Source: a virus
Reading direction: 5' to 3' (one strand)
Virus record (IMG/VR): IMGVR_UViG_3300025828_004167
Location: 1-64,000 of that record
Length of the DNA stretch: 64,000 nucleotides
A program made the translations under genes and the position numbers. This document shows positions 38,802 through 62,494 of the stretch, one piece after another. Position 1 is the stretch's first letter, and each line of letters starts with the position of its first letter. The notes beneath the pieces are model-generated. The model did not search any database. It was given only the letters and a program-made list of their open reading frames with translations, and was not told the origin of the DNA.

Positions 38802-39454
38802 ATCTTCGTTCCTATTATCATGAATCTTTTGTATTTGCCGAAATCTTTCTCATAGAACTTGATGTTCCTCAATTTCGACACGTACTGATTCGCGAAATCC
38901 TCCACCGTGTCCACACAATTGATGTGTTGTGTTATTTCCCTGTAGTTGTTGCTCTGCAACACGACCAATGTGTGTTCCTCTAATTTACTTATAGTGTCGT
39001 AGATCATGGATTGATCAAGATGTTCACAGGATGTACATATAACAATGGAATTTTCAAACTTATCTATTTCTTTGATATCCTTTTCAACAAATTTAATGTA
39101 TGTTAGGTAACCATTTTTCAAATTATCAGCATCAACTTTCTGCCATAGTTTTTTAGCCACAGTTTTGGCTTGTGGATCAAAATCTACACAATCTATGTGA
39201 CCTATCTTTTTCAGTGTCAATTTTTTTACCAACATGTGTGCCAACAGTCCATACCAACTGCCTAAAATAGAAACACTGATATTTTTATCCAACGTCTTGC
39301 ATTTGAAATGGTGAGGATATTCATTTAATTTTTCAATCAGCCAGTCTTTACTAGCATACTGATTTGTGCTGAGACTATCAATGACGTCAATTATTCTGTC
39401 TGGACATTTCTCTAACAGTCTCTTTACCGTGTCTAGTGTGTCCCTATCAAACAT
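38798..39454 (-). CDS. class I SAM-dependent methyltransferase-like protein
   Basis: SKDWL, ILGSWYG, VDFD, CTSCEH, LQSNN, RFMIIG. Confidence 0.6.
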   Translation of the reverse strand: MFDRDTLDTVKRLLEKCPDRIIDVIDSLSTNQYASKDWLIEKLNEYPHHFKCKTLDKNISVSILGSWYGLLAHMLVKKLTLKKIGHIDCVDFDPQAKTVAKKLWQKVDADNLKNGYLTYIKFVEKDIKEIDKFENSIVICTSCEHLDQSMIYDTISKLEEHTLVVLQSNNYREITQHINCVDTVEDFANQYVSKLRNIKFYEKDFGKYKRFMIIGTKI

Positions 39455-40025
39455 ATTTTTGATTGTGCAACAGTATTGTGTTGTGTTCCACTCCCTCCTG
39501 CCAGCTGGATATCTGATCTCCTATGAAATAGTTGTATTTGACGTCTTCGTTGTAGATGTATCTGTCTATACCAGAGTACAATCTCACATATAGATCTCTG
39601 TGTTTCATGAACTTTTCAAACACGTGCCGTTGATCGCTCCAACGCATTATCGAAGAGTTCACCAGCGTGTTCTGTGTCACACGGAATTTCAAGGGCGTCT
39701 TCAAAGATTCCTGTTTCCATGCACTGCTGTTGACCAAGGTCAACCCTTCGAAATCACTCGCTAAGAAATCAATGTTATCATTTATGGCTATGTCTAAATC
39801 AAAGAACAAGCACTGTCCCGTGAACTGTAGTAGGGATAACTTATGGAACACACCACGCAGTTCGGGGTGCGTGACTGGAATATCATACTCCTTCTCTGGT
39901 CTATCTGTGAGACATCTAAATGTGTGATCTAATGTGAGATGTTCTGCGACAGAGTTTTTTAACTTTTTATCAAAGTCTCTGGTGTATTTCGTTCCGACGT
40001 TAACACAGTATACATCAATCATCAA
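39447..40025 (-). CDS. glycosyltransferase-like protein (GT-A)
   Basis: CVNVGTKY, CLTD, LFFDLDI (DxD), NSSIMRW, GIDRY; paralog of 37369..38085. Confidence 0.65.
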   Translation of the reverse strand: MMIDVYCVNVGTKYTRDFDKKLKNSVAEHLTLDHTFRCLTDRPEKEYDIPVTHPELRGVFHKLSLLQFTGQCLFFDLDIAINDNIDFLASDFEGLTLVNSSAWKQESLKTPLKFRVTQNTLVNSSIMRWSDQRHVFEKFMKHRDLYVRLYSGIDRYIYNEDVKYNYFIGDQISSWQEGVEHNTILLHNQKYV

Positions 40026-40485
40026 AGTTATTGTAGGCCACCAACAGCTCGAGCGGTGTCTTTGCTGATCTTAGTTGAGATTTCTTTTCCTTGTCGGTAG
40101 ACCCCTTCACTTTTTCTGTTTCAAATATTTCCACCTTGGTGGTGAACAACATTTCCTTACACTGTGCGTCGTTTGGATCAAAGTTCAGTATGCACTTGAC
40201 GAAGTCCTCCACAGATACACGTTGTTTGATATCTGTTTTTGACTTTATGCCAGCGTCCACTATGTCGCTCAGTTGCTGTGCGTATCTCCTGTTCCGGGCG
40301 ATCGTGGCCTCCGCTATCTTGTCCGTGCTGTATTCCGACACGAGGTCCTTGAAGTCTTGGTTGTTGTAATCAACCGGGAGATAATGATTTATCGCCCGCT
40401 TGCCGTCCTCATAGATCACCTCGACTGTGTTGTTTTCTGAATTTGCGAAATACGCCTCTATTATTTTTCCACTGAATATTGCCAT
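40015..40485 (-). CDS. hypothetical protein, 156 aa
   Basis: AAGGA SD and its own promoter; first gene of the enzyme run. Confidence 0.7.
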   Translation of the reverse strand: MAIFSGKIIEAYFANSENNTVEVIYEDGKRAINHYLPVDYNNQDFKDLVSEYSTDKIAEATIARNRRYAQQLSDIVDAGIKSKTDIKQRVSVEDFVKCILNFDPNDAQCKEMLFTTKVEIFETEKVKGSTDKEKKSQLRSAKTPLELLVAYNNFDD

Positions 40486-40508
40486 TTTTAATCCTTTGTT
40501 GCTGTGTT

Positions 40509-40537
40509 ATTGTAGCAGAACAACATCAAAAAGTCAA
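40509..40537 (-). promoter_or_regulatory. sigma70-type promoter
   Basis: Minus strand TTGACT(40537-40532)-N17-TACAAT(40514-40509). Confidence 0.7.
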
Positions 40538-41470
40538 TTATGATTTCAGTATCTTGAATGTGTAGGTGTTTACAGTTGTGGGTGTTCCGTCTGGGAATTC
40601 CTGTGCCCGGTAGTCGTTGGAATTGACGAATCTGGTCTGGTAATTTCCACTTCCGCCAGTGAGCTGTGTGTTCACTATGGCTGTGCCCCTGGCCGTACCA
40701 CTTCCGTCTATGTTGTATGAGATCTGGTATCCTGTCGAGGAGTTAACCACTTGATCTTTGATGTATTCCTGTAGCAGTACACCGATCTCCGCGCCCGAAT
40801 ACTGTTTGAGATTGTTAGACGCATCTATGTACACGGGAGGATTGTAGGTGGGTAACACCCCATCGATGACATGTAGGTAATAGTTGGTTATGGTCTGTGG
40901 CTGGTCCTGTGGCTCGCTTATATCAGCGGCCGAATACGCCGAGGTGTCTGCCCTGGTGTCAGTGAATATCGGTGTCGATGATACCAGTGTCGCTCCTGTA
41001 ACAGAAGTAGATGTCGAAACGAAATATGTTCCTGCCTGGGCACTCGTTGTATCGCCCAATGACATTTGATTTATGGTTGGATACACGAATGTATCTATGA
41101 AATCCTGTTCGGTCATGGCCTGTACCTGTGTGCCATTCCAGTAGATTGGGAAGGTCTTGCCCGTATCTGTGGTGGTTATAGATGCTGATCCTGTGACCTG
41201 TGTGATACGTTGGAACGAAGTCGTGACCACGCTGGGTTCATCTGTTGTTGCTTCAGACGGATAACCTCCACTTGCCGACAATCCCGCGCCTGCCTGTAGC
41301 CTAGTGTCGTCGATTGATGTTAGATTTCCCCCCGAACCAGACACTGTCAGTGTCCTTGAAGGTGATAATGAATAGTAATATGCGCCGAGGGTGTATATGT
41401 TGGTCAGATCACTGCTCTTCATCTGCTGAAGTTGTGCGCCGTTGTATATTAAAGGTGTTCTAACAGTCAT
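40538..41470 (-). CDS. S/T-rich virion structural protein
   Basis: Three internal P(L/I/V)Y.....(L/V)Q.M-like repeats, FTDTRAD, YRAQEFP; very T/S-rich. Confidence 0.6.
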   Translation of the reverse strand: MTVRTPLIYNGAQLQQMKSSDLTNIYTLGAYYYSLSPSRTLTVSGSGGNLTSIDDTRLQAGAGLSASGGYPSEATTDEPSVVTTSFQRITQVTGSASITTTDTGKTFPIYWNGTQVQAMTEQDFIDTFVYPTINQMSLGDTTSAQAGTYFVSTSTSVTGATLVSSTPIFTDTRADTSAYSAADISEPQDQPQTITNYYLHVIDGVLPTYNPPVYIDASNNLKQYSGAEIGVLLQEYIKDQVVNSSTGYQISYNIDGSGTARGTAIVNTQLTGGSGNYQTRFVNSNDYRAQEFPDGTPTTVNTYTFKILKS

Positions 41471-41517: not shown

Positions 41518-42735
41518 TTACGCTCCTGCGCCGTATATGGTCTTTAGTACCGTTCCCGTACTGCTCAGGATTTGTAATGATGTGCTTGATGCGAACATGG
41601 TCGATGTCACTGTGCCAGTGTCTCCAGTCGTTACCACTGTACCTGTGACGTTTGGTATGGTAATGGTCCTGTCCGCAGTTGGGTTGGCCACTGTGATCGT
41701 GGTTTCGAAAGCGTCATCTGATGATCCTTCGAAGATGATTGTACCACTGGTTGTGAGTTGTATGCCCGACGTTGTTACAGCACCTGTTAATGGTCCTGTG
41801 AAAGCGGTCGCGTTCACAGTGCCCGCCACATCCAGTTTGGTACTAGGAGTTACTGTGCCTATACCTACCCTAGACTCGGCTCCATCGATGGTCATCACCG
41901 TAGTGCTGGTTCCACCATCATTGACCTTGAACGTGATGTCTGTGTTCTGTGCCGTGTTTGACAATATCACACCGTTGCTGTCAACTGTGATAGAAAGGTC
42001 ATTGTCAGCACCCACGGTAATACCTGAGTCATTGACAATACCCAGTGTGCCTGTTGTGGTGTCGTTGGCGTCTGATCTGAGGAACGATGCCGCCGCTATG
42101 CCGCCAAGTTTATCTGCGTCTGTGGCAGTACCGTTTAATTTGATTCCTGAAGGTGAAGTTGTGAATGTTATTCCCTTGTACACAGTTGGGAAACCTGTTA
42201 TCGCTGTCTGTGGCGTAAACTCCGTGTCCGAAACTATGGCTATCAGCGTGCCATCACTGTACCATTTGGTTATGGGTTGACTAGCTGTGGTGGAATCTGT
42301 GACTGCTTCATACACGAAACCATTTAACGAACCTGTTGAAGTTGGTGGACCGACCAGCACACTCTGAGATCCGTCATAGTAGAACAGTTGTCCTACATCT
42401 GAATCTATCCAGAGGTCTCCCTGTTGTATACCACTTGGTTGTGTGGATTGGTAGGGAATGTTACCCCCGGCAGGAACGAAAAGGTTCCCTGTGTAGACTT
42501 TCAATCTGTCAACGTCACTGTCATACCAGAGTTGCCCTTGTACTGGTTTGGTCGGTGCCGAATCGTTGGCAAAATTTTCCAGTAGATGGAGGAAATTCTC
42601 CGCTATCAGCTCTCCATAACCCGCATAACCCTTACCAATGAAACTGAGATCCGTCTGTGTGTTGACCACACCGTCCTGTACTATGTACTGGTTAGGTGAA
42701 GCGGCGCTGTTTGTCTTGTTTACTGTGTAAGCCAT
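41518..42735 (-). CDS. tail fibre/baseplate protein
   Basis: GKGYAGYGE..ENF, QGQLWYD/QGDLWID, RVGIGT..P..KLDV, PTADRTITIP; paralog of 26110..27750. Confidence 0.75.
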   Translation of the reverse strand: MAYTVNKTNSAASPNQYIVQDGVVNTQTDLSFIGKGYAGYGELIAENFLHLLENFANDSAPTKPVQGQLWYDSDVDRLKVYTGNLFVPAGGNIPYQSTQPSGIQQGDLWIDSDVGQLFYYDGSQSVLVGPPTSTGSLNGFVYEAVTDSTTASQPITKWYSDGTLIAIVSDTEFTPQTAITGFPTVYKGITFTTSPSGIKLNGTATDADKLGGIAAASFLRSDANDTTTGTLGIVNDSGITVGADNDLSITVDSNGVILSNTAQNTDITFKVNDGGTSTTVMTIDGAESRVGIGTVTPSTKLDVAGTVNATAFTGPLTGAVTTSGIQLTTSGTIIFEGSSDDAFETTITVANPTADRTITIPNVTGTVVTTGDTGTVTSTMFASSTSLQILSSTGTVLKTIYGAGA

Positions 42736-43469: not shown

Positions 43470-43477
43470 GTATTTAT
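43470..43477 (-). promoter_or_regulatory. T4-late-like promoter ATAAATAC
   Basis: Minus strand ATAAATAC-actag-ATG(43464); contains the TAA stop of the giant gene. Confidence 0.55.
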
Positions 43478-46400
43478 TCAGGTGCGTTTGTGGGCTCCTC
43501 TGCTATGAATTGGGCCTGTTGTGATGTAGAACCCTGTAGTCCTTTACCATCAGCAGGATTACCATCCTTCGCAGTGTACCATACCTGTCCTCTCTTGTGT
43601 AATATCTTGATCTGTACGGCGTCAGCGGGTGCTGTGCTCAAAGTGACAACATTGGTGCTTCCGTCCACAGAATAGTTGATAGTTGATCCATCCTCGCTAG
43701 TGAGCAACAATCGTTGGCCACCAATGAATATGTCTAACTCACTAGCGAATGATGGGGTTTGTGATAGAGTGAACGCAATCGTACTGCCATCACCTGTGAA
43801 GGTGTTGGTGTATATCGTGTCCACGTAAGGGATGGTTTGAGTACCAGACGCGTCTACCACTGCTGTGCCTGATCCATGCTCCTTGACTCCTGTTCCCAAC
43901 GTACCACGCTTGATCTGTCCAAGTTGGTTGTTGGTCTTTGTAAAGTATTCGATTCTCTCCTTGCCTATGAACACCACTCCCGGTATTATGGTGCTAACCG
44001 TGGACCCGTCTAGACCAATCACAGTCTGTGGGTTGGCCAATACTGACCCATCCGCCACCGTTATGGTCTCGTCATCCACTGATAAAGTCTGCGTCAGTTC
44101 CGTGGTGTGTGTCTTAGAGATACGCTTGTAGAAAGTCCTGTTCATCATGTCCTTGAATATCCTGTAACCGGTTGCGCCCGTGGCAGTCTCTAATGCGAAG
44201 TACATCACATCTAATCTGTCAGATGACACGATTGTCTTGCCTGATATTGTGATAGTGCTTCCTGAAAGTGTGTAGTCGAATCCCTGTGCTAATTGCTGAC
44301 CGTTCAACCACACGAACATGTATGAAGAGTTCAGTGGTGTGTAGTACAGTTCATGTACACCGCTCGGTCTCCCCTCCAGCACTTCTCTCCTCATCTTAGT
44401 TCCAAGAGCATTATTAAAAGTAGTCACCCTCAACACGGAACCGTTCGTAAGTGTGTGACCGTCTGCGGCGATTTGAGCAGTGTCTAGAACTAGTGCTGAT
44501 GAACTGTCCCCGCCGTCGATCGTATAATGTTTATCAACCAAGGTCGTTATGGCTATCACATCTCCCTCCACTGCACCTGTACCTTGCATATGCACAGTCT
44601 GTGTCACAAGATCAACTTCATAGTTTCCCTCCTGAGCCACGGTGCCCTCTACTAATTTCCTTCCGTTGTAGTGTACCTCGATCTGATCTTTACTGGTGAT
44701 CACCTTGGCGGGATCCACCGTCGAACCATCACTCAGTCCAGATGTTACACCAAATGAGTATGTGGTTCCGTCACCCACGTAATATGTGGTGTCTGGCCCT
44801 CTTAAAACTTTTCCGTCCAGTTCCACTATTGTGAGTGCGTGGAAAGGCGAGACCGATCCCGGTGGGAATGTCATCGGCAAGGTTGTTGTGGAACCGTCGT
44901 ATATTATGTCCTCAGCTCTGATCTGTGCCACGCTCCTGGATATGCCTGTTTTCTGGAAACCTGCCACTTGTATGAAATCTCCTGCCGCTGGCGGTTCAAC
45001 GAATGTTATTGTCAAAGTGTTTGAGAAACTGCTTCCAGAAGACACGGTCGATGTGAACGCCGTTGTAGGTAATCCATTCTTGGTCACGTAGATCTCAGAC
45101 GCTGTTGAATCTATGTTGAAGTCTTCCCTCACAGATGTTGCGAACTCCACAGTCGATCCATCACCCGTGTACTGATCCAACACCCTGTAATTCTGTCCCG
45201 ATATAGCAAACACTTTTGTTGTGATGATGCTAGTGTTTGCTGGTGCTGACGTGAATGTGATGGTCTTGGCCGCTACATCCACTGTGTAGTCTGCCGCTGT
45301 CGAACCATCCAACGAAACTTTTTTAGTTACTCCGTCAACTGTCACCATGACTGATGCCAATGATCCTGGATATTCCCCTATAGAATAAGTGGTTGTGCTA
45401 CCATTACCTATGTAAGTTTTCTCTGTGATGAAAGGTACGCCCGATTCCGGTGAAGTGTACACCTTGATGTCCACTGTGTCAAAGATCTGTCCTGGCACGA
45501 CTTCCTCCGGTGCGTAACTGGTTGTGGGAGATAGGAACTCATCGCCATCCACGTTGATGTCTGAAGGTGCTGATCCCAGCGCCGAAGCATACAGTCCATC
45601 CTTGGTGAACAGTCCGCCTTTGATTATGGAATCAAGTGTCCTATCGTCCGTTGGTGTTAACACACCGTCGTCATCCGCTGGTATGAATTCTACTAGTGCG
45701 TTCTCGTCTGGTGTAGTGCTCAAAGTGAATGTTGTCGTGCTACCGTCTCCCGTGATCACATCTGACAGTTTGGTTCTTGTGCTGTCATCTTTTGATGTGT
45801 AAACGTAATACACTGATCCACTGGCCGGAGCCGTCGGGAAGGTATATGAGTTAGTTGATCCATCTGCTAGGAACGGCACCGTCCTTGATAATCCGTAATT
45901 GTCCCATGGGTAGTCATACCAAGCCGACTGATCCCAGCCCTGGCTCTGTGTGAATAATAGTCCTGTGACCATGGTTCCACCGTAGTCCACTCCCGACATT
46001 ACCTGTGAAAGTTCGTTGCCCGGCATTCCCGCCGCCGGTGTGTAGAATCCCTTGATCCTGTCCGCCGCCGTCAATCCTGACTCATCACCATAGTACTTGC
46101 TGACAGCACCTATGTTGTCGTCGAAGTCGGTGGTGGATGTGAAAGGACTGACCGCCTTGTACAATTCGTTGTCGTATCTGATCTTGTCACCGTAGGCGTA
46201 ACTGGTGTTGGCCGCCCAGTTGACCACTGTTGACGTGCTGGCTATCCTATCAAACTTGATTGTGGTGTTGAAATCCCTCACCAGGTCATTGCCTAGATTA
46301 GCATAGGCCTTGGCCACGTCTGTTGGTGTTGAACCGTCCGCCTTACCACCTGTTATGGTCACCGTTGGTGTGGTACTATAACCAAATCCTATACCCGTCA

Positions 46401-49400
46401 CAGTGATTGAAGTCACCGCGCCACCACTTATGGTCGCCGTTGCTGTGGCAGATGTTGAGTCATCGCCAGTGATTGTTACTGTGGGTGCCACTTCATATCC
46501 GGATCCACCGTAAAACACAGTTATAGATTGTACGTGCTTCCTGTGGTAGTCATACCACAACTGCCATGGGTACTGCGTGAGCCTGGTGGTCTCTGTGGCT
46601 GGGTTGATGGATCTTATCTTGCCAATGCTCTCGTCATAGAACGGTGGATTGTCGAAATCGGTTATGACACCATCGTGCTGTTCCGGCGCGTTGTAGCCCA
46701 GTTTGTACTCTCTTAATTTTGTGTGGAAAGGTTTGACCTCATTGATGTAGCTCTCTATCCAGTCATCCGTTCCCGTGGTGTATGTTTTCCTCTGGTCGAA
46801 CTGCCTCACCTTGTTGACCGCTGTTATGAAACTGGTCTTGAACATCCAATCAACATAGGTCTGTTCTTCCAGCACCTTCCTCAATCCCGTGAAGAACAGT
46901 GTGTTGTACTCGAATTTAAGGTCACCTATGAACAGGTCATCCCTCAATGCCGTCAATATCTTTCTCGTCTCAGTAACCGGTTCTTGGTCAAAGGTGTTGT
47001 CATCAAAGTTGTCCTCACCATCATAACCTGTGGCGTCTTGTGAATAATCATAGAGCTTAGTGCTCAATCTAATTGTGCCGTTTTCCGTGCCCACGTTTTC
47101 CCATCCTGTGGCCGTCCTCATGAACAGTTTCCACCCACCAGTGTCTGCACTGGTCACTTTCACATGTTTTCCAACTGCTAGGTCGAGGGCGTCAAGTTCG
47201 TACTCGAAGGTCACTTGTTTGTCGATCACGGTGTTCTCGTCGTGTACCATGTCGCCGTCGGTCTTATACCAGTCAGTGTAACTCCAGTAGTTTGATGTGT
47301 TGTATGTCTGTATCCTCGTCCTAGACCATTCCGTGCCATCCCATTGGTATATCGCCCAGTAGTTGTTTGCGGTCTCGTCTGATTTCACGAGGTAGTTCAC
47401 TGTTCCTGACAGGTCTCCTGTGTTCAAGTATCCCAACTCAGCATAGGTATCCACCTGCCCGTCCCATAGACCGCTGGCGCTGGTCGGCTCTGGCTCCTTG
47501 GCGTCAAGATTTGTTAGGCTTATCTGTCCCACCAGTTGGTTCTTCTTGAGAACCGAATTAGCGTAATCGATTATCTCCTTAAGTGCTGAGAATCTATCCA
47601 CGTACCAACTCTGTCTTGGTCTGATGTTGTTTCCATATTTCTGGTTCAAAGATAGATCCACGTCCGGAACGGCATCCCCCGAGATATTCTTACCACACAG
47701 TGAATCCCACCAACGAGACTCGATCTGGTGTCCTGGCCTGTAGTCCGGATCTCCTTCTCGTACTAGTTTCCATACCGAGTGTGCGTCTCCGTCAAATGAG
47801 TTGGTTCTGATGTCCACGTTCAACACGATATCGCTGTTGACGAGATCGTTCACGCCATTTATGATCAATTTGTTGGTGTCTGTTACCGAGTAATATTTCA
47901 TGCCTGAGTTTTCCGGGTTCCTGATCAGGTTCGCCACCAATGCCGTGGTGTTCTTCCTGTTCACCACCGAGTTTGACGGGATCGATGACCTGTTCTTGAC
48001 CCAAAAGTAGTACCTGTTCACAAATGTATCTACTCTAGAATCGTATTTCTGCACCACTGTGAAGTTTTCAGATGCCTCTCCTGTCACTGATGAGAATGCA
48101 CCCTCCTGTGTGCCTGACAGCGTGTTCCATTCAGTTGGAGTAAACTGAGATTCCGTCCATTCGTAAATGTCTATGCTGGATCCTGGGAAAGTTTTGCCCC
48201 AGTTGTTGACCTTGTATTCCTGCGTGCCTTGTTCGTACCATAACCATTTCACTGTTGAAAGGTCCCACCATACCTCACCAATGTGGTTTTCGGCCCATGG
48301 TGTCTTGGTGTTGGCATTGTCACCGGTATTGTACACTGCCGGATCCCATGGAGACTTGATGTTGATTTCTCTATCTGCCACTCCCAGTATCCTACCTTTC
48401 ATTGGATCATATAAATCGTAGTAATCCCTGATCTGCTTGGTCTTGTTATCAAAGTCAAATACCTGTCCAAGTTTGGCTATGTCTACTAATACCGTTTCTG
48501 TTGTGATGTTCTTCCATGCGTACTCGTCCTCTACCTTTAGGTCATAACAATATACTGTACCGTCATTGGTCAAGCCAGTATTGCCCTCGTCCTTTGGTGC
48601 TCCTATGAACAGGTTGTTGTCGATCATGCACACGCCCCTACCGAAGTCGTCGTTCTCCGAAACGTTATCTGATATTATTCTGTCATCCAATACAAACTTG
48701 GTATTGTACACCGTGGCAGTGTATGCCGCACCAGAACCTGTGTTGAGGTCAATTATATTAGTGTCTTGTAGGTCGAAAGTGGTCTCACCTGAATCAAATT
48801 TCATTGGTCTAGGATTGGCTGATTTCTCAGCACCTATGATCAATCTGGTTCCCGATTGGTTCATTGACAACGATGAACCGAACTTGGCATCAGAAATGTC
48901 CCCAGGCTCGTTTATGGTCTGATCCAATGTGTAGGTGTTGGTCGATCCATCCCTGTTCCATTTGTATATGTAGACTGCGCCCGCGTCGGCCTGATCTGCG
49001 TTATCCACTCCTGGTGCGCCTATGGCCAGTGTCGTACCGTCCTTGCTCATCGCAATCGACTCACCGAACGACGTATTCAAAGTTGAACCATCTTGTTCAA
49101 CACCTGTCAATGTCTGTGCCAGTGCGAATGAGTTGATCGTGCTCTCGTCATTTGCCTGTGATGTCCTCACGAATATCTCGACCTTGCCGGCATTGCCTGA
49201 CGCCACGGAACTCACGACAAGTATGTCGCCGTTGTCATTGACTTCTAGTTTGTGTCCAAACCTCTGTCCCGAACCACCCGCTGGAGCATCTATAATTAAA
49301 TCCTGTGTCCATGTGTCATATGTAGAACCATCAGCGCCAATGCCCCAGGTGTACATGTACACCCTACCTGTGTCGTTGTTGTGTCCTGGTGCTGTCACAA

Positions 49401-52400
49401 ACAGATATTTCTGGTTGGTGCTTCTAGTTGAACTTGTTGTTGGTTCAGCAATCTTGTGTGCCCATCCAAAATTCAGATCTTCATTTGCTGTGGATCCGTC
49501 TGTGGGTGCAGTCAATGTTGAAAGAGGACCATACTTGAATGTGTCTGGATCCCATACGTAAATCTTGATTAGCCCTTCGTTGTAATACCTAGTGCTTCCG
49601 TCATTGGTCAGTACATTCGTGTATGGTGCACCTGCGATCACGAAGTTCTCGTCTGTGCTGATCGACAATGATTCACCCAACCTGCTGGTGTTGTCATCGT
49701 TGTCGGTCATCGTGGTGGTGGCCTGTACGGAATATTCCGTACCAGCACTGTGACTAGATCTGAATAAGAAGTGTATTTCGCCTTGTCCTTTGCCTGGTGC
49801 CGATATGACTGCTGTCCTTCCGTCGTTACGCGCCACTACACGGTATCCGAAATCTTGATCTGCGGTCGTTGTGTCTGGGGACAGCGTCCTAAATTCTGTG
49901 TATGGATCCTGCTTCTCATAAACACGCCACAGCCCTGAACTGTCCGCGTCAGCGAAAACCTTGTCGCCCTCTACCTTGACCTGTTGGTTCTCATCCTTGT
50001 CATTGTAAACATTGTAGTTGATCCTGTCATTAACATTGTCCATCGAACTTAACCTCACGGAAACAAACTTGTAAACGTTGCCGTAACTGTCCGCCGTTGA
50101 ACCGTCCGCCAGGGTCGGTATGAAGTCAACATTGTCATCGTAGTCCACTATCACGGTCTTGTGGTCCGGCACGCTGGCCACCTGGAACACCCTGTTCAGT
50201 GTCGTGGCCTCACTGTTTGAGATCGCGAAGTAGTCGGCCTCGGTGGTGTTTGATCCTGCTGACAGTCCATGTGAACCTGTGAACTGTATCAACAGTCTCG
50301 TGGCATTCTCTGAAGTGCTAAGTTGATCTATCTTGATTCCGGCACTGGTCAGCCTGAACACGTCCCAGTCCTTGTTCTGCTTGTTGGCGACCCATATGAG
50401 ATCATTCTTTGTGATCGAGTTGATGTCAAGGTTCAGTAGGTCTGATATGTCAAACGCCGTGTGCTGTACCTGTTCCGTTTGTGGATAACCCGCTGTCTTG
50501 TACACCTGTGCCTTGTCCCTGTCCACCCCGGCCTTGGTATAGTCTAGGAGTGAGAAAGTGCTGGCGGCCGTATACTCCACAGGTTTCCTGTAAAGAGTTT
50601 CCTTGATTACCGCCAATGATCTTCGATATTCTTTCGTGTCTGCTGTGTTATCTAATAACTCGATGCTCTGGGGATCTGCATTAACTTGATCATCACTCAA
50701 GGTGATCTGTATGTTTTCCACGGAGTCTGTGTTGCCGAACACACCGGTCCTGATCATCCATTCTGGGTAGAGGCTTAGATTGATGTCTGAATTTTCATAC
50801 TTGGCCTTGAGCAATTTATCGATCGCGGCCTGTGTGCCCTTCTCTCTGATGTATCCTTGATAAAACTTGTACTGTGATACGTCATTCACAAACAAGTTCT
50901 CTAGGTAATCCCTCGATTGGTAACCTATCAGCCTCTGTGCCAACTGTTGTTGTGATTCGTCGAAGTTGTTGGTCTCGAGATTGTAGAAATCATTGAACTG
51001 AGATATCTTGTAGTCGAAGTTGGGTATCAGTTGCGGTGCTGGCTTGTCTGCTTTCAGCGTCCAATTAGTGCTGTCAAATGTACCAGTCGAGTTATGATTG
51101 ATCTTCGCAACATAGAACTTGCCTTGGTACTCTACAGAATCACCTATCCTATAATTGGTGTTGTCTTCCCAGTACGTGACCTGCGCGGCGTCGAAAACAA
51201 AACCTGGTGCGTAATAGTCGCCATTCCAGTTTGCTGTTTTCCAGCCCACTAGTTTCAACCTCTGTTGTCTGAATCCCGTGAATGGTTCATATATTATGTC
51301 TGAGAACACTGTGCTGTTGTCAAATATCAACACATGTTCCTTCTGAACTGTGTTTAATGAAATATTGTATAACCCGATGTCTTGGGATTTGACACTCAAG
51401 TCAAAAGTTTTACCAACACGTTTTGTTGATATCTCACGTATGTCTATCTTCCTACCTCCAGCGTCTAACAATGAGTAGTCGCCTGCAAGGTTCCTTAACC
51501 TACCAACTATGCTGTTGTTGGTATCTAATTCAAAACCGTCCGCGGCCGGTGACACTGTAATTGCCGAACCAGGTGACCACTCTTGTGTGGTCCAGAACAG
51601 GAATTCTCTGACTGCGTTGGTCCAGTTGAGTGTCTCCTTTATCTCATTCGAATATTTGTTGAATCGGAAACTCTGCGATTCTAACCAGTGTCCATATCCC
51701 AGTAGGAAATCCGCCACGTCCTGAATGGTGCTGAACACATAACCATAAGGTATGGTCTGCACGGTCTCTTGATAATTCTTGTATTGTGAAACAGCCACTG
51801 ACCCTGTTACAGATAATGTGCCAGCGACAGTGGATTTTGCTGGATAGTTGAACTTGAAGTAAGGTTTTGTTGTTGAGTAACCCAGCACTTTGTATCCTCC
51901 CAACAGTGTCGACCCGTCTACACCTATGTCCGTGTTTTTTTCGATCAACACGCCTGAGTAGTTAAAGCTCTCAACCGGATTGGATGTTCTAAACAGAATC
52001 TTGTAGTTCTCGTCTGGTATGAATTTAGATCCCGAGGTGGATCCCGGAGAAACAGAATCGGTCAGTACCTTGATGTTGTCCTTGTCAGTGAACCCTCCCA
52101 ACTTGTAGGCCAACTGCACATTCAAGTTTTTCATCTTGTCATAATAGAATGTTTTTGGATCTAGGTTCTTGGCCACCATGTGGTTTACCACAAAAACTTG
52201 GTACCCCGCTGTCTGATATCTCGTTGTTATTCCCGTGTTGTTGTCCGTCAAAGTTTCGAGGTGATATTTCGCGTTCGAAAGTTGTTTCCTTATTCCCGTG
52301 TCGGCGTATATCTGGTTCCCGGCAACGTTTGTGGATAACCTGGAAACATCAAAGAAGTTCGAGAAGAACTTGGCCGGTTTTGTTATGGCCAGTGTCTTCA

Positions 52401-55400
52401 TGACCGTGAAAGGGTATGCTGACGACCTTCTCCATGCCGTCTCCGCTGGTGCTTGGTCACCAAACTTCCAAGGCTGTCTCCTGCTTGGTATGTCAAAATT
52501 ATCTATCAGTCTCGCCGCGATCGGATCGAGCAAGTTACCCGAAGCGTCCACTGGTAGATAGTTGGCGATGCCTGGCTTGCCATACCTGCCGGCCGCTGTG
52601 GCAACCGCGTTCCATAGTATGTCATTGCCAGAAGTGTAGGGTGCTGGTCCGTAGGTGTCATCCCATGTGCTTGGTTTCTCGGAGTACCCCAACATCTCCC
52701 ATGGTCTAGTGTGTGGTGCGTCTGTGTCGTAGTGGTACTTGTAGATGGCCCTCCAGTGTCCTGGCAGTTTAGCACCAGTCAGTCTGCCCGTCGAGTTGGC
52801 ATAGTTGTAAGTGAACGGAGATCCCTCCGAGAACGTTGTGTTATTGATGTACTGCACACTGTTACGTCCCGCCCACACATAGAAGTCAGTGCCCATGATG
52901 TCATCTATCTCTACGAGGGTGTAATCTGTAGATTTAAACGCACTTGGTAGGACATCATGTATGTCTAACAACGTGCTGTCGTATGCTGTCTTGCAGTTGT
53001 TGTATATCCTCTTTTCGAGTTCCAGTATCAGATCATCACGTTCATCACCGTAGGCCTTGATTATAGATCCGTCGTGTCTTCTTATTACTGTAGTGTTGGT
53101 TGTGTATGTGTCATCCGTGAATAACTCGGGTTTGAATTTTGGATACATTCCCAACTTGGTAGGCGTTGGCGGTATGTAACTTCCAGTTGTGTCGGCGTAA
53201 TCCTTGATCACTATTGTGTCGCCCACTGCAAGTGCTTTTGATATGTTTATACTATCGTCGGTTGTGCTGAATGTGTAATCTGTGCCCAATACAAGTTGTG
53301 TGTCATTAAGATAAACGTATACCGCCCTGTTACTCAGTGTTGTGACATTGTGCTGTGAATCCATAGCGTAATCTTTTTGGGAAGTGCCCTGTACCGTGTA
53401 TGTCCTTGTTGAGACGTTTTGTCCCCAACCCACCATATCCTCGTAGAAAAACGGAAATGAACTGTTCTTGCCTACGTTAATACTTTCGATTATCTCATCC
53501 ACACGATCTCTAGCCACACCCTCGTATGCCGTTCCGATTGCTTTTGTCAAGAATGCGTTGTACCATTTCTCGTATTCCTGGTTGACGTAGTCAATGGCCG
53601 CGATGGCGTTTGCTTCCTGGTCCACTAGATTGAATATCGCTGGCACCAACGGTGCCTCGTGTTGGTGTATAGTACCACCTTTCAATCTCGCTTCCGGTAT
53701 GTCCCTGAGATTCGTAGCACCTGGGACCGCGCCTGTGAGATCTTGGTTCTTGTCAAATATGTCAGTGACATGTTTCAGTATCTGTCCATACGTGAACGTG
53801 CCTATGGTCTGGTTTAAACTGTTCGTTGAGAGGTTCTCGGGTATCTCATAGATGCCCTTGTTAGTGACCTTGATGGCACTGCTGTAGCCGGCTATCCTGA
53901 TTTGATCATTGACTTTCAGTTCTTTGACGAATCTCACATACTTGTTGGTTGTGCCGTTGACCAAGGTGTAGTCCGTGGTCAGTGTCTTCCTCACACCATT
54001 CACTGACACACTTATCTCCAGATCCGTTAATGACGCGGAGTTGGTGTAGAAATCAATTGGAAAGAGTCTCTTCTCTGTGTCATCGACTATATGCGTCCTG
54101 ATCACACGCTGTTTGCTCTCGTTGGTACGCTTGATCCAAGCACTCTTGCTATTGTGCGTGGTCCTGCCTGTTGTGTAGTGTAGGTGTCCCTCGGCCAAGT
54201 TCTTGGTCACTGTCTTGCCATCCACTTGATATGTGAACGTTCCTGACGTATGATCAGATTCGAAAACCATGTCTCCCACGTTATTGATGGTGTTGTACTT
54301 GACCTTTATACCCAGCACCGTGTCTGTGGTCGCAGTGTCTGACGTGGCATAGGCAAATACTTTGGCTCCTGCGAATGACGAGTTGGGATACGCCGTGGCG
54401 TCGTCGAAACTGGTGTGGTTGTTGTCGTACATGTTGAACAACGGCTGTTGGTTCAACGCTGTCTTCTGTTGTGTAATTTTCCATGTTGTGGAAGCGGCAT
54501 CATAGTAGTATGACTTACCCTTGTTGTTAACTCCACCTTTGACAAACACCGTGTCCTTGTCCAGTGCCGTGCCGTTAGTGTCCTCGTTCAATGTCAACGA
54601 CAGCACCGTGGAATCACCTGCGTCGACGAAGTTGGCCACGTATACCTTACTCCTCACCAACGGATCGGTGTCCGCCGAGAATATGATCCTCATGCCGTCT
54701 GTTATGGCAGTCTCGTCACAGAAGTATCCAAACTGTCCTGAGACCTGACTGAACGCGTCCCTGGTGGTCGTGTCGAAGAGGTCCACTGGATTCTTGGCCA
54801 CTGTTCCTGAGTTGTACAGTGACAGTCCCGAATCAAATTCAATTATGGGTCTCTTGGCCCTGTCCGTCTCATCAAGAACCGTGCTTGTTCCATTTACCTG
54901 CGACGCTTTTTCTATCACGGATCTGTGGAACCACCTGTTGTATCTTGACCATGCGTTGTGATCTAGTGAATCCCTCTTGATTGTTATGTAATCCTTATCC
55001 ACCGGAGAACCATCCGTGGCGTAGCTCTCTGGAGTGGCCAGCACCGTGGTATCGGTCAAGGTGATTGCATCTCCAACCCCCTCTACGTAGTATTCCTTGT
55101 TCCTGTACGCGGCTGGGACCTTGCTGGAACTGAACTTGATCTTCATGCCGTTTGAAAATGCCAGTGTCCTCAATTTGTAATTCTTGACTCCCACTATGTC
55201 GTCGGCCACGTTGATCTGTGATGTGGAGGCCACTGTCCTTATGTGTAGTATTCCGTACATGCCGTCATGATTACCACACTGGTAATATAAAGTGTCGGGT
55301 GCTCCGTCTGGCACCACAAATGTCACAGTGCCCTGATCAGCACCGTTGTTGGTCACACCAGATGTGTACAACACCGATGTTGACCCATCAGCGCCAATAC

Positions 55401-56112
55401 CGTCCCTGCTGGGCTCGGTCATTATGTAGAATGGATGTCCCTGTGCTTCCACTGTGAACTTGTAGGTGTTGCCCCTCCAGAGCGTCATGTCTGGATTCCT
55501 CTCGTTCTCGAGATGTCGGAAAGTGTATGCCCTTCCGGAAGATCCGTCATCGGGTAGTGCTTCCACCTTGTATTCCGCTACCGCACCTGTGCCGACTGAA
55601 TCAATTTCTATGGCGCTCGGTCCATTGGGTAGCCAGTAGTATTCTCTGTAGTTGACCAACTTGTCGTAGTCTATGGCCGGGTTCCAACTGTACACGGTCT
55701 CCTTGTTGAGCCTGTCATGGTTGTCGACCTTGCCTCCTAGGTACTGGATCTGATTGATGTAGTCGTCATACGTTCCTGTGAACTTGACCTGGTCCTCTGG
55801 ATTCACCGAAGTTGTGTCTCTGTCCGTGTATGTCACGGCTGGTTCCAATTGATATGCGAACCTATCCCTGCTGGTGGCGCCTATGTATCTGTCTGTGATC
55901 TGCCTGGTGTAAGCGTCCTGCCTTCCTACGAACCCGTCTAATCTCTCCAGTTGACCTTTCTGTACTAGTGGATCTAAAGTGCTGGCCAGGAAACGCTGGT
56001 TGGTGTCGGTCCTGTAAAACGCTGGTAGGTGCTGTACCGTCCTACGATACTCGTTCGTGCCCTGCTTGACGACTTCGTTGTTGGTCAGTGCGTTAATTGG
56101 ATCGTCGGCCAT
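43474..56112 (-). CDS. 4212-aa giant virion protein (baseplate wedge/gp7-position protein with beta-propeller and GDGST repeats)
   Basis: Directly follows gp6-like gene; [16 protein letters not shown]-like repeats (FG...IGAP...G.VY), a cupredoxin-like segment, and C-terminal ERI.Y...RGTLGT. Confidence 0.75.
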
Positions 56113-59636: not shown

Positions 59637-60041
59637 TTAAGATAGACGTAGAAGCGAGTTCTCATCAAAGTTGAACCTCAGTTTCTCAGTGATGTTCAGG
59701 GGCACATATGTTATAGTGGCCTGTATAGCCAAGCCCTTATCGGCTTCTGTGACCAGTATCTCCTGTGTGCTGATACGTGGATCCGCGTTAAGGTTTGCTG
59801 TGACATCCTCCACTATAGCCTCTTTCAATGCTTCCGTGAAGGGCTCAAACAACGCATCATATATTATAGTTCCAAACTCAGGATTCTCCACACGCTCGCC
59901 TTTCCTGACGGAAAGCCTGTTGATGAGGTCCTGTTTGGCAACCTCGAAGTCGTACAGTTTGAAGTTTTGCTTATCCGCACGGCTACTGAAACCCTTGAAG
60001 GTCACTTTCCTGTTTGATAGGTCTTGGTTCTTCTCTGCCAT
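59637..60041 (-). CDS. baseplate wedge/sheath initiator (T4 gp25-like)
   Basis: KGERVENPEFGT, LFEP, DPRI. Confidence 0.88.
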   Translation of the reverse strand: MAEKNQDLSNRKVTFKGFSSRADKQNFKLYDFEVAKQDLINRLSVRKGERVENPEFGTIIYDALFEPFTEALKEAIVEDVTANLNADPRISTQEILVTEADKGLAIQATITYVPLNITEKLRFNFDENSLLRLS

Positions 60042-62494
60042 TAGTTCAATCTCCTAAATTCCACGTCCACTTTATTATAGTCAACCATGTAGAATCCCGT
60101 GTCGGTTATAACACTGGCCCACGGCACCTCTTGTGCCATCACGCCCTGGTATGTGCCCGGCAACTGCTTGTATTTAAACTCGTAGATGTTGATTCCCTGT
60201 GCGGATCTGCCGATTAATTTTATGTCTTCCTTCAATCTTTGGTCACTGAATTTAAATCCACTGAAGAAATTCTTGACCACACCACCTATGGCACCTATCT
60301 TGCTGGATAGATTCACTCCCACGTTCTGTAGGAAACTCTGTCCCAATCTAGAGGCGTCCCTGGCGTTGAACAGTCCCGCCTTGCTGGCCAGGCTCTTGAC
60401 CTGGTTCATGCCCACTATCTTGCCACCTACAACACTTGAGTACGTCTGAGTTATACTGCTTAGGTTAGATATGCTTGGCACTATGTTGCCCGCTGAAAGA
60501 TTCTTTGTGAGACCTTGAACAGAGTTCAAGGCGTTATTGGCCAAATCAATGTTGCCAGAAATTCCAGACAGTGTGTTATTACCCAGTGTGAACAGTTCAC
60601 CTGCTTGATTGACGAAAACGTTGTCCTTGAACAGTTCCGTGCTCTTGCCCGTGAACGACTCCACCACCTGTGACGTTAGATTTGATGTCAGATTCTTAAC
60701 ATCTGTGTTGAATTCGAATCCTTTGATCTTCTCTGATATACTGTCCTTGATGTCGAAAGGTAGATTTATTTTATTTGTTATTCCGTAGATGTCATTGTAC
60801 TTAGATCCGAAGTCGGTGAGTAGTTGTTTGGCTTTGACTGCATTGGTGCTCGATCCCATCTTCTGTTTCACGTACTCCAGTGCGTCCGCTTGGTATTGCG
60901 CATCTCTAATCGCGCTGTTCTCACTCAGCCTGTTCTGCTGGTTGACGAATTCGGCCGTACCTGGTGTGTTGGCCAACTGGCTCCATCTCTTCTTGTCATC
61001 ACTGTCCACCGGTATGATTCCATCATTACCGATCACGCTGGCCCTGAACATGGGTTCGTGTGTGACGAATCTGTGTACTGTGGTCTTGGTCTTCCTTGTG
61101 AACTGTTCTAGAGGTTTGATGCCTTTCTGTGTGAGCTCCACATCTCCCTCGTCCCTCAACTGCATTCCTGCTTTTTCTGGTGTGAGCCAATTTGGCCCCC
61201 ACGTTGGGCTCGCGCTGGTCGAGTTGAAGTGAACCTGCGATCCCGCTAGGTGTATCTGTCCGGAAGCGCCATGTAACTGTGTGCCACCGGTGAATGATGA
61301 TATTCCGTCCCTAGCATAGTCTCTTACAGATCCCGCCTGCGAACTATTAAGTATGCCCTTCTCTCCGAGGTTCAACAGTAGGTCAGCAGAGTGTATCATC
61401 TCCTTGGCCGAACTGAATCTTACCTGTCCGTTGGCATGCATGTTGATGTTGCTGTCTGAGTGCAGGTTGAAGTCTCCCTCTGTCCTCATATTGATACCAC
61501 CCACTCCGGAGTATAGATCTATCCTACCGTTGCTCTGCATCTCTATCCAGGCGTTTCCCGAACCGTTTGCTATGTACACAACACCCTCGGTGTCGTGCAT
61601 CAAAAGTTGATGTCCCGAAGCAGTTCTTAACCTTGTCAGTTGGTTCGTACCGTTAACGGCACCGTCGTCCATAACAAACGTGTGACCTGTGGTCCTTGTC
61701 ACGTAGTCGGTGGCTTCTGAATCTTTTGAACCCACTTTCTTCTTTGGTGTGCCGGTATCTTTCCTACCCGGTGTGCTTATACCAAACACCTGACTGGGTG
61801 TCTCTCTCCTGGCCGACGACGTCGTTGTTCCCCTAATTGGATCAGCTATCAAGCCCTGTTTCAACAACACATCCGCGAAAGGATGTATAGGTTTTGGGGT
61901 TGACTCATAATTACCATTGGCGAGAGCACCAGGTGTGTTCCTGTTAAGTTCACCGGCTGGTACTGTTTTTGTTCCGTAATTTTTTTGCTTGTCGATTAAA
62001 TCTTGTTGTGCGCCCGGGGGGCCTTCCTGTTCCCCGGTCACTTTGTCCCAAGTGTTGGCACTGGCCGCTATTCCCGGTGTCATGTGGTTGGTGTAGGGAT
62101 CCTGAACACAACCTATCCAATAGGCCTGGTCCATCTTGCCCTCGGCAAATATGACGAGAACCTTGGTGTCTAGGTCAGGTGGCACCGCCCAGAAACCATA
62201 CGAATGTTGACTGTCCTCGAACTCCCTGGAAACACCGTTGGTGTACTGTGCGCCCTTGGCACCATAGAAAGGTGATAGGTAGTCACAGGTTATCAACTGC
62301 TTCTCTGTGGGGTTCTCTGTCTTTACTAGGCTTGGTATGAAAACCTTGAGCCTTCCCATCCTGGCTGGGTCCTTGTTGCCCTTGACTATGCCAAGGTAGG
62401 GTCCGGAGTTAGTGACCGACCATTCCTGGTTCCAGTTACTGCCCGACGGTTTGGGTGTCGAAGCGTGTCCTTTCAAATAATCTCTCTGTGCCAT
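60041..62494 (-). CDS. gp5/VgrG-like baseplate hub spike with C-terminal peptidase S74-type chaperone
   Basis: OB-fold DPARMGRLKV, YGFWAVPPD..VLVIF; GHTFVMDD, RTASGHQ beta-helix; C-terminal SDQRLKEDI...YQGVMAQEV...VDY. Confidence 0.8.
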   Translation of the reverse strand: MAQRDYLKGHASTPKPSGSNWNQEWSVTNSGPYLGIVKGNKDPARMGRLKVFIPSLVKTENPTEKQLITCDYLSPFYGAKGAQYTNGVSREFEDSQHSYGFWAVPPDLDTKVLVIFAEGKMDQAYWIGCVQDPYTNHMTPGIAASANTWDKVTGEQEGPPGAQQDLIDKQKNYGTKTVPAGELNRNTPGALANGNYESTPKPIHPFADVLLKQGLIADPIRGTTTSSARRETPSQVFGISTPGRKDTGTPKKKVGSKDSEATDYVTRTTGHTFVMDDGAVNGTNQLTRLRTASGHQLLMHDTEGVVYIANGSGNAWIEMQSNGRIDLYSGVGGINMRTEGDFNLHSDSNINMHANGQVRFSSAKEMIHSADLLLNLGEKGILNSSQAGSVRDYARDGISSFTGGTQLHGASGQIHLAGSQVHFNSTSASPTWGPNWLTPEKAGMQLRDEGDVELTQKGIKPLEQFTRKTKTTVHRFVTHEPMFRASVIGNDGIIPVDSDDKKRWSQLANTPGTAEFVNQQNRLSENSAIRDAQYQADALEYVKQKMGSSTNAVKAKQLLTDFGSKYNDIYGITNKINLPFDIKDSISEKIKGFEFNTDVKNLTSNLTSQVVESFTGKSTELFKDNVFVNQAGELFTLGNNTLSGISGNIDLANNALNSVQGLTKNLSAGNIVPSISNLSSITQTYSSVVGGKIVGMNQVKSLASKAGLFNARDASRLGQSFLQNVGVNLSSKIGAIGGVVKNFFSGFKFSDQRLKEDIKLIGRSAQGINIYEFKYKQLPGTYQGVMAQEVPWASVITDTGFYMVDYNKVDVEFRRLN

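Follow-up and report, generated by a model that had tools for sequence, protein, structure and literature searches.

Recurrent DGST tetrapeptides in a giant phage virion protein are probably structural beta-turn motifs amplified in one clade

Why does one tetrapeptide, Asp-Gly-Ser-Thr (DGST), occur 19 times in a single phage protein? The protein is encoded at positions 43474-56112 (minus strand) of the window, which is the whole stretch of 64,000 nucleotides analysed here (positions 1 to 64,000 of IMG/VR record IMGVR_UViG_3300025828_004167) and part of a 72,804-base viral contig. This open reading frame (ORF) is stop-free on translation and yields 4212 amino acids (aa). For related contigs (79-96 kb), completeness is estimated at about 25%, and the source is probably a marine jumbo phage of roughly 350 kb. 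An earlier, sequence-only reading of the window had counted 19 exact copies of DGST. It proposed a surface tag that is selected at the protein level and modified by neighbouring hydroxylases and glycosyltransferases, with a generic beta-turn or calcium-binding motif as the alternative. Our recount agrees with the 19 copies. We consider it probable that DGST is a structural beta-turn motif, similar to the Asp-box in its way of working, which was amplified in this clade.

The copies begin at residues 242, 1399, 2003, 2171, 2205, 2261, 2341, and 2388 from the N-terminal part to the middle of the protein, and at 3259, 3417, 3456, 3602, 3651, 3739, 3795, 4035, 4108, 4141, and 4150 in the C-terminal part. 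Composition predicts 0.23 copies and a first-order model 1.4. The enrichment also stands against shuffled sequence, a check that the earlier reading had proposed. Across 2000 residue shuffles, the maximum was 3 copies for DGST and 6 for whichever 4-mer was commonest. The next most frequent real 4-mers that do not overlap DGST have 3 copies each. Chance or composition is thus ruled out as the source by expectation and shuffles. Threonine comes next in 19 of the 23 DGS, and aspartate stands before 19 of the 23 GST; the tetrapeptide acts as one unit. The near variants noted earlier are all present in the same numbers (DDST twice, GDST, DEST, DGSS, and NGST once each), and GDGS occurs three times, matching the three copies that had been assigned to a GDGST..F repeat. 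The codons were rightly described as varied (GAT/GAC, GGN, TCN/AGC/AGT, ACN), and this variation rules out a repeat at the DNA level. The flanks are mostly hydrophobic or aromatic at -3, +6, and +8, a hairpin-like pattern. Six-frame translation of the whole 72,804-base contig shows DGST in no other ORF of at least 80 aa, and the 1160-aa gp6-like protein, for which its absence had been reported, is among these; the 66 other non-overlapping ORFs (20,053 aa) contain none, with 0.40 expected. Among the papers listed by a literature search, we found none on such a motif in phages.

An IMG/VR scan gave 68 loci with orthologs, of which 41 are essentially full length. These were aligned with the protein of the window (42 sequences, 67-93% identity to the window). 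The 41 orthologs have 8-19 DGST each. In the alignment, DGST begins at 28 distinct columns, and for most copies of the window, 28-42 of the 42 sequences have the exact motif. The mean retention of the 19 copies is 0.69, compared to 0.40 for all 4-mers (P about 1e-4) and to a local 4-mer background of 0.15-0.50 around the sites. At recurrent sites, the residue frequencies are 93.5% for D, 90.9% for G, 88.9% for S, and 86.3% for T, and the Ser of the motif is retained at 0.85 versus 0.63 for other Ser. Among sequences which keep the residue, the numbers of different codons are near saturation (D 2.0, G 3.7, S 4.2, T 3.8). As synonymous codons are saturated while the residues are kept, selection acts on the protein. 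This confirms the protein-level selection that the sequence-only reading had postulated. Where the motif changes, it becomes DGSS, DGTT, DDST, DEST, or DSST, which are substitutions tolerated by a turn.

The giant protein belongs to PHROG phrog_10938, "virion structural protein" (E 0), and at E<=0.01 Pfam finds FG-GAP_2 and CBM_5_12 alone in its whole length. Megablast of the gene against cultured phage records gave no match. With the first 3000 residues, tblastn found homologs of 25-30% identity and 3300-4450 aa, at the same gene position, in the five jumbo phages PA5oct, Atu_ph07, SCTP-2, PBECO4, and Vibrio phage 2.275.O. The core common to these homologs comprises residues of about 24-2025 and 2535-3190. 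The propeller (~2030-2530) and nearly all of the C-terminal array are unaligned to any of the five. The modules of this part of the protein, two of which carry most of the copies, are the following.

48523..49965, minus strand: FG-GAP / integrin-alpha-like beta-propeller, residues ~2050-2530, with DGST 2171, 2205, 2261, 2341, and 2388 and DEST 2322.

46126..46221, minus strand: CBM_5_12 carbohydrate-binding module, residues 3298-3329 (Pfam E 4.6e-11).

43537..45900, minus strand: C-terminal region with an array of immunoglobulin (Ig)-like beta-sandwich units U1-U7, residues 3405-4192, with ten DGST, NGST 3570, and DGTT 3781.

Models were calculated with AlphaFold2 (AF2) from 38-sequence alignments for residues 3200-4212 and 1940-2570, and 17 of the 19 copies fall inside them (all but 242 and 1399). 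The former model has a mean predicted local distance difference test score (pLDDT) of 61.7, with domains at 70-88; the latter has 71.7 and a predicted template modelling score (pTM) of 0.72. In the DSSP assignment, D, G, and S are coil in all 17 modelled copies. In 15 of them, D is preceded by a strand that ends 1-3 residues earlier, and T is followed within 0-4 residues by the start of the next strand or bridge; 3259 and 3795 are the exceptions. Surface exposure of the DGST loops is plausible.

The propeller is recognized by Pfam as FG-GAP_2 (E 2.3e-14, 53.7 bits versus a cut-off of 23) and by Foldseek as integrin alpha chains (E about 2e-14, probability 1.00, TM score 0.45-0.64). Its copies are of three classes: the hairpin between strands 3 and 4 (2261, 2388, and DEST 2322, the same hairpin of successive blades), the connection of strand 4 to the following blade (2205 and 2341), and the link between strands 2 and 3 (2171 and a column near residue 2512, which is DGST in 20/42 sequences and a gap in the protein of the window).

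The array is interrupted by a different domain around residues 3870-4097. In Foldseek, the C-terminal region matches best the cyanophage A4 portal-tail complex chain U (E 1.6e-8), and it also matches the N-terminus of CBA120 TSP4 (probability 0.99). Matches to DUF2460 were sub-threshold (E 0.009 and 0.11), and a profile of the region had no meaningful match among PDB sequences (the hits were a 45-aa chitinase carbohydrate-binding module and a designed barrel, E 0.29-0.72). The Ig-like units presumably resemble the N-terminus of the T7 tail fibre, which Pfam echoes weakly for U3 (Phage_T7_tail, PF03906; sub-threshold, 15.3 bits versus a cut-off of 25.2, E 0.016). According to hhalign, U3, U4, U6, U7, and the pair U2-U7 are homologous (probability 82-96%) with the canonical motif in one column, and DGST 3602 of U3 aligns with DGST 4141 of U7. 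U1 matches other units weakly (probability <=45%), and U5 has no significant match.

For more distant relatives, a HMMER scan with residues 3400-4212 gave 914 representative proteins, and column counts were taken from 150 representatives of 50%-identity clusters (distant representatives). The sites are listed one by one with the number of the 42 sequences that have exact DGST; strands (E) and loops are numbered as in the models.

DGST 242 (55378..55389, minus strand): This copy lies in an N-terminal insert and is exact in 37/42. The distant loci L143 and L109, described below, also have DGST here. The stretch just before it is a gap in comparison to Atu_ph07.

DGST 1399 (51907..51918, minus strand): This copy is exact in 39/42. 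Its loop is gapped in PA5oct, Atu_ph07, PBECO4, and the Vibrio phage.

DGST 2003 (50095..50106, minus strand): The site belongs to the domain before the propeller and is exact in 39/42. It is coil between E61 and E67 with pLDDT <50, and, like 4035, it is a gap in the jumbo-phage homologs.

DGST 2171 (49591..49602, minus strand): Located in the connection of propeller strands 2 and 3, the motif is exact in 42/42. Coil 230-235 lies between E227-229 and E236-239.

DGST 2205 (49489..49500, minus strand): The copy follows strand 4 on the way to the next blade. It is exact in 17/42 and DGSS in 14; the coil comes after E254-262.

DGST 2261 (49321..49332, minus strand): This is a propeller 3-4 hairpin, exact in 42/42, with loop 320-324 between E310-319 and E325-336.

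DEST 2322 (49138..49149, minus strand): The near variant occupies the 3-4 hairpin of the next blade, and 27/42 have DGST here. Loop 378-389 lies between E371-377 and E390-397.

DGST 2341 (49081..49092, minus strand): Again strand 4 leads to the next blade. The motif is exact in 13/42 and DGSS in 29, in coil 400-405 with pLDDT <50.

DGST 2388 (48940..48951, minus strand): This 3-4 hairpin of the propeller is exact in 31/42, and the remaining 11 have DDST, DSST, or DDSS. Loop 447-454 lies between E440-446 and E455-462 with pLDDT of about 90.

DGST 3259 (46327..46338, minus strand): The site is in the linker from a small beta domain to CBM_5_12, exact in 25/42 and DGTT in 12, as coil after E51-55.

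DGST 3417 (45853..45864, minus strand): In U1, the copy takes a canonical-like first-strand turn (coil between E213-216 and E223-225). It is exact in 30/42, and 18/24 aligned distant representatives have DGST.

DGST 3456 (45736..45747, minus strand): This is the canonical first-strand turn of U2 with GDGST..F, exact in 36/42, as coil between E247-255 and E262-264. The column is DGxx in 47/62 aligned distant representatives.

NGST 3570 (45394..45405, minus strand): The near variant is at the canonical position of U3, which is DGxx in 72/136 aligned distant representatives.

DGST 3602 (45298..45309, minus strand): This second position of U3 is in the loop before the "DYTVD" strand (coil 402-409) and is exact in 8/42.

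DGST 3651 (45151..45162, minus strand): The canonical turn of U4 is exact in 36/42, as coil between E443-450 and E457-461. Among 132 aligned distant representatives, D is found in 98, G in 106, DGxx in 89, and DGST in 37.

DGST 3739 (44887..44898, minus strand): The canonical-like turn of U5 (coil between E532-538 and E545-548) is exact in 37/42, and DGST is found in 30/119 distant representatives.

DGTT 3781 (44761..44772, minus strand): The canonical position of U6 has DGST in 32/42 sequences.

DGST 3795 (44719..44730, minus strand): The copy is in an insertion within U6, as compared to U3 and U7. It is exact in 12/42 and DDST in 22, in a long low-confidence loop.

DGST 4035 (43999..44010, minus strand): The hairpin belongs to a domain in common with PA5oct, where the site itself is a gap. 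It is exact in 15/42 and a gap in 25, with the loop between E830-833 and E839-844.

DGST 4108 (43780..43791, minus strand): The canonical turn of U7 is exact in 34/42, as coil between E901-907 and E914-916. Among 119 aligned distant representatives, D is found in 82, G in 84, DGxx in 75, and DGST in 32.

DGST 4141 (43681..43692, minus strand): The second position of U7 is exact in 33/42 (coil 940-945).

DGST 4150 (43654..43665, minus strand): The third position of U7 is a tight hairpin, exact in 28/42, with loop 951-955 between E948-950 and E956-959.

By reading alone, the insert around DGST 242 (window 55228-55545, minus strand, residues ~190-295) has a pattern like a cupredoxin copper site, with GHPF upstream and a stretch of 12 residues downstream. 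The cupredoxin reading is unsupported, as Pfam gives no family at E<=1.

In total, the copies occupy at least 10 different contexts, including the propeller, the Ig-like array, and loops without counterpart in distant homologs. A single position of one repeat is ruled out by the models and hhalign, and the earlier description of unrelated contexts was correct. This bears on whether the copies are a historical accident, i.e., leftovers of the internal duplication of DGST-bearing units, kept by ordinary domain conservation alone. Ig-like units and propeller blades are internal repeats indeed, and some copies are in homologous columns. However, the unit array is colinear with relatives of 30-40% identity, and therefore the duplications are old. 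The retention of 0.69 exceeds the local means of the background, synonymous sites are saturated, and 242, 1399, 2003, 3259, 3795, and 4035 lie outside repeat units. We regard the accident as very unlikely; it is already largely refuted.

How old is the motif? Many of the 914 relatives are giants of 4000-6000 aa with 30-40% identity. Representatives at roughly <=40% identity have 0-7 DGST versus 0.1-0.25 expected. Their canonical columns read mostly DG-x-T with S, T, V, N, A, I, or E as x, and most of their non-canonical columns are gaps or lack conservation. DGST or DGxT persists at the canonical places in the consensus of 21 giants of 31-45% identity. A second IMG/VR scan with an alignment of these 21 distant giants gave 78 new loci with 0-5 DGST, save two. 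L143, a sister of 55% identity, has 13 copies, of which 9 are at DGST sites of the window and 2 at DGST columns of other orthologs; the sites are thus ancient and stable in position. L109 (about 35% identity) has 9, three of them at shared columns and four in a stretch unaligned to the protein of the window, which points to an independent spread of DGST. Taken together, the distant-family columns, L143, and L109 therefore show that DGST is old at canonical sites, had multiplied before the split at 55% identity, and arose again elsewhere. Residues 2375-2725 of the L109 giant ORF hold four DGST, at least two of which have Ig-unit-like flanks ("ftaDGSTtsfslsf" and "ysvDGSTsnitfseap").

If DGST is a structural turn, it would cap one beta-strand and start the next in exposed connections of peripheral modules. 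It would derive from DGxT, the signature that marks the first-strand turn in the Ig-like units of many fibre and baseplate proteins of phages. In the marine jumbo-phage clade, the third residue would have been fixed as Ser, and DGST would also have been fixed at propeller 3-4 hairpins, blade-to-blade links, other Ig-unit loops, and inserted core loops. Asp likely caps the turn, and Gly may adopt the backbone angles of a tight turn. Ser and Thr could form hydrogen bonds to the main chain and begin the next strand, and an enzyme would be unnecessary. We infer this hydrogen-bonding role and a benefit for folding or stability.

Two known turns are comparable. The first is the Ig-unit turn: 3456, 3651, 4108, NGST 3570, and DGTT 3781 are in one column of homologous units, and this column reads DGxT in hundreds of relatives. 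3417 and 3739 resemble the turn, although their units align weakly or not at all. The canonical first-strand position holds 5 of the 19 exact copies. DGST differs from the general DGxT turn in that x is fixed as Ser in the clade and in that the tetrapeptide has spread to other loops and to another fold. The second turn is the Asp-box (S-x-D-x-G-x-T-W), the analogue with the best documentation, which an excerpt of PMC2716378 describes as a surface-exposed hairpin in different folds and in propeller 3-4 loops. The same excerpt sees its conserved residues as supporting the structure and as unlikely to bind a ligand. Similarly, DGST 2261 and 2388 and DEST 2322 are in the 3-4 hairpins of the modelled propeller, and other copies are in beta-sandwich units. 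In contrast to the Asp-box, D and G are adjacent in DGST, no Ser is found two residues before D, and no conserved Trp or other aromatic residue comes directly after T. Its propeller is FG-GAP/integrin-like, with copies also at blade-to-blade and 2-3 links. Pfam BNR had no match at E<=1 on ten segments of the giant protein. With the consensus absent and BNR unmatched, DGST is not a member of the Asp-box/BNR family, and the likeness is one of how the turn works.

Several points weigh against a purely structural role. The pLDDT is below 50 in five of the loops (2003, 2341, 3602, 3795, and part of 4035). Ser is 89% conserved in the clade but variable in the wider family, and a turn has no obvious need for it. 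The at least 10 non-homologous contexts, with several insertions and the extra copies of L109, look like selection for the tetrapeptide itself. DGST is missing from the other beta-rich proteins of the contig (gp6-like and fibre-like), and the five cultured jumbo-phage homologs have none; hence, it is not a common feature of these phages or the fold. Of 19 resolvable clade loci, 15 have genes of the hydroxylase family (PF05118) at a distance of 4.5-14 kb downstream. The flanks of the 78 distant loci gave no PF05118 match; in 18 of these loci, the sequence downstream of the giant gene is 9 kb or longer. The five DGST-free jumbo phages gave none either, in a profile search of genome records which calls for caution, as it was positive for 1 of 5 clade records and missed the gene of L057 (hmmscan E 6.6e-11). 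The hydroxylase profile for the clade loci was built from this clade, whose contigs are fragments. The clade-specific Ser, the restriction to one protein, and the repeated appearance in inserted loops are left unexplained by a turn, and they keep alive the two readings in which DGST is modified or binds a ligand.

If modified, DGST would be a sequon for Asp beta-hydroxylation by the PF05118 oxygenases or for Ser/Thr O-glycosylation with a sugar made by the phage, resulting in a chemically decorated baseplate periphery. The candidate enzymes are encoded downstream of the giant gene, where a conserved 241-aa gene and a fibre-like gene (41518-42735) are followed by an enzyme island and a paralogous fibre-like gene (26110-27750).

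Window 27761-41470, minus strand: enzyme island of roughly 14 kb between the two paralogous fibre-like genes.

35182-35841, 33845-34720, and 29564-30217: three ORFs of PF05118 (Asp_Arg_Hydrox), by Pfam.

33025-33867: ORF of the TauD family, by Pfam.

These four ORFs, 7.6-14 kb downstream of the giant gene, bear out the neighbouring hydroxylases of the sequence-only reading. Its glycosyltransferases are not borne out: no such family passed in Pfam over the 52 window ORFs besides the giant, NCBIfam found nothing for the 10 ORFs without Pfam annotation, and the sole trace is a sub-threshold Glyco_transf_61 match inside the TauD protein. The island also holds two methyltransferases, a radical SAM ORF, a fatty-acid-desaturase-like ORF, and many unannotated ORFs. 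Beyond it are many radical SAM/SPASM genes and the sugar-nucleotide enzymes that would suit a sequon, i.e., a carbamoyltransferase, an epimerase/dehydratase, and a DegT aminotransferase. Phage records contained no tblastn match to hydroxylase 1 or to the L014-type hydroxylase.

A sequon would also agree with the conservation of all four residues, with the Ser kept above other Ser, and with sites in loops of peripheral, lineage-specific modules. Location in loops was one of the two points which the earlier reading had wanted to see checked by ortholog alignment; co-variation with the enzyme cassette, the other, is not supported. The large island is present in 9 of the 68 related loci (8 of these among the 41 aligned orthologs), and it does not track copy number. 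Seven other loci have a single hydroxylase gene in its slot, which is followed by a short-chain dehydrogenase in L014 and L057 (Pfam-scanned), and L062 ends at the hydroxylase. In L033, L041, L056, and L063, the region closes without a hydroxylase, and 16, 15, 14, and 10 DGST are kept; the same holds for the partial L027 with 15 in its partial protein. With contigs about 25% complete, such absence refers to the locus and not to the whole genome. The slot is a hypervariable one in the host-recognition region. In L033 (26523-28604, plus strand) and L014 (26169-27593, plus strand), fibre-region proteins with Hint/intein-type domains (Hom_end_hint E 7.6e-14 in L033, weak in L014) occupy the hydroxylase slot of other loci. 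The 42 loci are grouped as follows.

With at least one hydroxylase among the fibre-like genes, 15 loci: DGST 14-19, mean 17.0.

Closed without hydroxylase, 4 loci: DGST 10-16, mean 13.8.

Outside the resolvable set, 23 loci: DGST 8-19, mean 14.9.

The higher mean with hydroxylase favours a sequon, but the ranges overlap, the contrast is phylogenetically confounded, and the core set of sites is identical across the three classes. Many DGST and nearby hydroxylases coincide at the level of the clade, which is about one evolutionary contrast. That relatives without a nearby hydroxylase gene keep DGST argues for the structural turn.

A phage with the same enzymes gives a further comparison. Pelagibacter phage Mosig EXVC030M (L153, MT647606.1 34704-75075) has a host-recognition cluster beside its tail-fibre genes with the enzyme repertoire of the window (Asp_Arg_Hydrox, FA_desaturase, TauD, methylase, carbamoyltransferase, DegT-like aminotransferase, MoaA-like radical SAM, and epimerase). 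Yet, there are 4 DGST in its 90 kb, all in tail-fibre proteins, and 0 in the 2045-aa giant protein VrlC. The two enzyme sets suggest a mobile pathway shared among marine myophages. Such clusters are described in the part of PMC7029224 used here, where the hydroxylase is core to all pelagimyophages and the LPS-related genes, mainly glycosyltransferases and sugar-synthesis enzymes, are read as acting on the O-chain of the host; in that part we found no assigned target for the Asp/Asn-hydroxylase-family genes.

The known sequons do not fit either. DGST shares with the substrates of 2-oxoglutarate (2OG) oxygenases a repeated Asp motif in loops and PF05118 genes nearby, and if DGST were a sequon, loop hydroxylation of repeat domains would serve as its working model. 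The Asp/Asn beta-hydroxylase consensus of epidermal growth factor (EGF) domains is C-x-D/N-x4-F/Y-x-C-x-C, and FIH hydroxylates ankyrin repeats. The giant protein has 6 Cys in total, and none of them lies between positions -12 and +16 around any DGST copy. Hence, the EGF-type consensus and its disulfide-bounded context are absent, and the aromatic residue is at +6 instead of +5. Also unlike in the 2OG systems, the motif does not follow the presence of the enzyme, and the surrounding genes resemble a pathway for sugars or lipids; PF05118 also includes the lipid A hydroxylase LpxO. The O-glycosylation sequon of Bacteroidetes is D-(S/T)-(A/I/L/V/M/T). DGST has a Gly between D and S, and D-S-T is found in the minority forms DDST, EDST, and LDST alone. 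A precedent for phage-encoded decoration of virions is mycobacteriophage glycosylation, in which the subunits of capsid and tail tube bear glycans at their C-termini (Freeman et al. 2023, cited in an excerpt of PMC12619734). In the giant protein, the tetrapeptide is dispersed instead, and the window scans gave no glycosyltransferase.

The tie between the motif and the neighbouring enzymes is thus not supported by the four hydroxylase-free loci with 10-16 copies, by the cassette of 9/68 loci, or by Mosig. No other virion protein of the contig carries DGST. The modification tag as a whole is supported in part, by selection and contexts but not by the enzymes, and the sequences speak weakly for a modification of DGST itself. 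We consider the sequon unlikely. A virus-encoded modification code, in which the oxygenases of the fibre genes, possibly with the sugar pathway, would alter exposed DGST turns, is quite unlikely. The generic beta-turn, once the mere alternative, fits better because the canonical position is DGxT or DGST in distant relatives without such an enzyme in the flanks.

DGST loops could also be repeated weak binding sites for a metal ion such as Ca2+ or for a host-surface glycan. Their modules are of the adhesion type (integrin-alpha-like propeller, fibre- and tailspike-like Ig units, CBM_5_12), Asp and Ser/Thr side chains can ligate cations as a matter of general chemistry, and the motif is confined to a single protein expected at the baseplate periphery. 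However, the same tetrapeptide in at least 10 structural settings is unlikely to form equivalent sites. The Ca2+ loops of integrins sit in the 1-2 hairpins of the propeller, and DGST does not fit their pattern. Ligand binding by the Asp-box, the nearest analogue, was judged highly unlikely in the excerpt of PMC2716378. Binding is therefore a doubtful role, to which we give little chance.

The genomic setting agrees with the baseplate. Upstream of the giant gene are a gp5-like gene (Phage_base_V with a Peptidase_S74 end), a gp25-like gene, and the 1160-aa gp6-like wedge gene. By synteny, the giant gene occupies the gp7 position of the T4-type baseplate gene block, and its counterparts in PA5oct, Atu_ph07, PBECO4, and Vibrio phage 2.275.O likewise follow the baseplate wedge gene. 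The giant protein matched no gp7 family; in Foldseek, for which the C-terminal model alone was searched, a T4 baseplate chain was matched with E 0.018.

Some other genes of the window deserve mention. The gp5-like hub protein (60041-62494, minus strand) ends in Peptidase_S74, the intramolecular chaperone of endosialidase, which points to a self-cleaving chaperone at the C-terminus of the central spike. At 3556-4629, 7074-8033, and 8179-9651 (minus strand), the DegT/DnrJ aminotransferase (E 3.6e-88), the NAD epimerase/dehydratase, and the carbamoyltransferase are sugar-nucleotide tailoring genes. Between 4605 and 22078, on both strands, at least 9 ORFs have Radical_SAM matches (some sub-threshold), an unusual density. 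Four tandem radical SAM paralogs at 11265-16347 are among the radical SAM genes; three have an N-terminal SPASM, and the fourth (14992-16347) has a weak Radical_SAM match alone. The radical SAM ORF at 17009-18487 (plus strand) is of the B12-binding type. At the left end, 371-1612 (plus strand, opposite to most genes) encodes a DUF2201 putative metallopeptidase with a VWA-like domain.

What would these readings mean? If DGST is a modification sequon, a substrate would be found for the genes of the Asp/Asn-hydroxylase family, which are widespread in marine myophages. If it is a virus-encoded code, the altered surface would be relevant to host range or defence, and the sequon would be the first described for a phage structural protein. 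If DGST is a structural turn, which we prefer, one tetrapeptide would have been recruited repeatedly as a turn module at 10 or more non-homologous positions and in two folds of one protein, and selection would have kept it throughout a clade of uncultured marine jumbo phages. This would inform how giant fibre and baseplate proteins are built, as well as loop design. In either case, the 19 defined peptides provide a testable handle on a family annotated solely as "virion structural protein."

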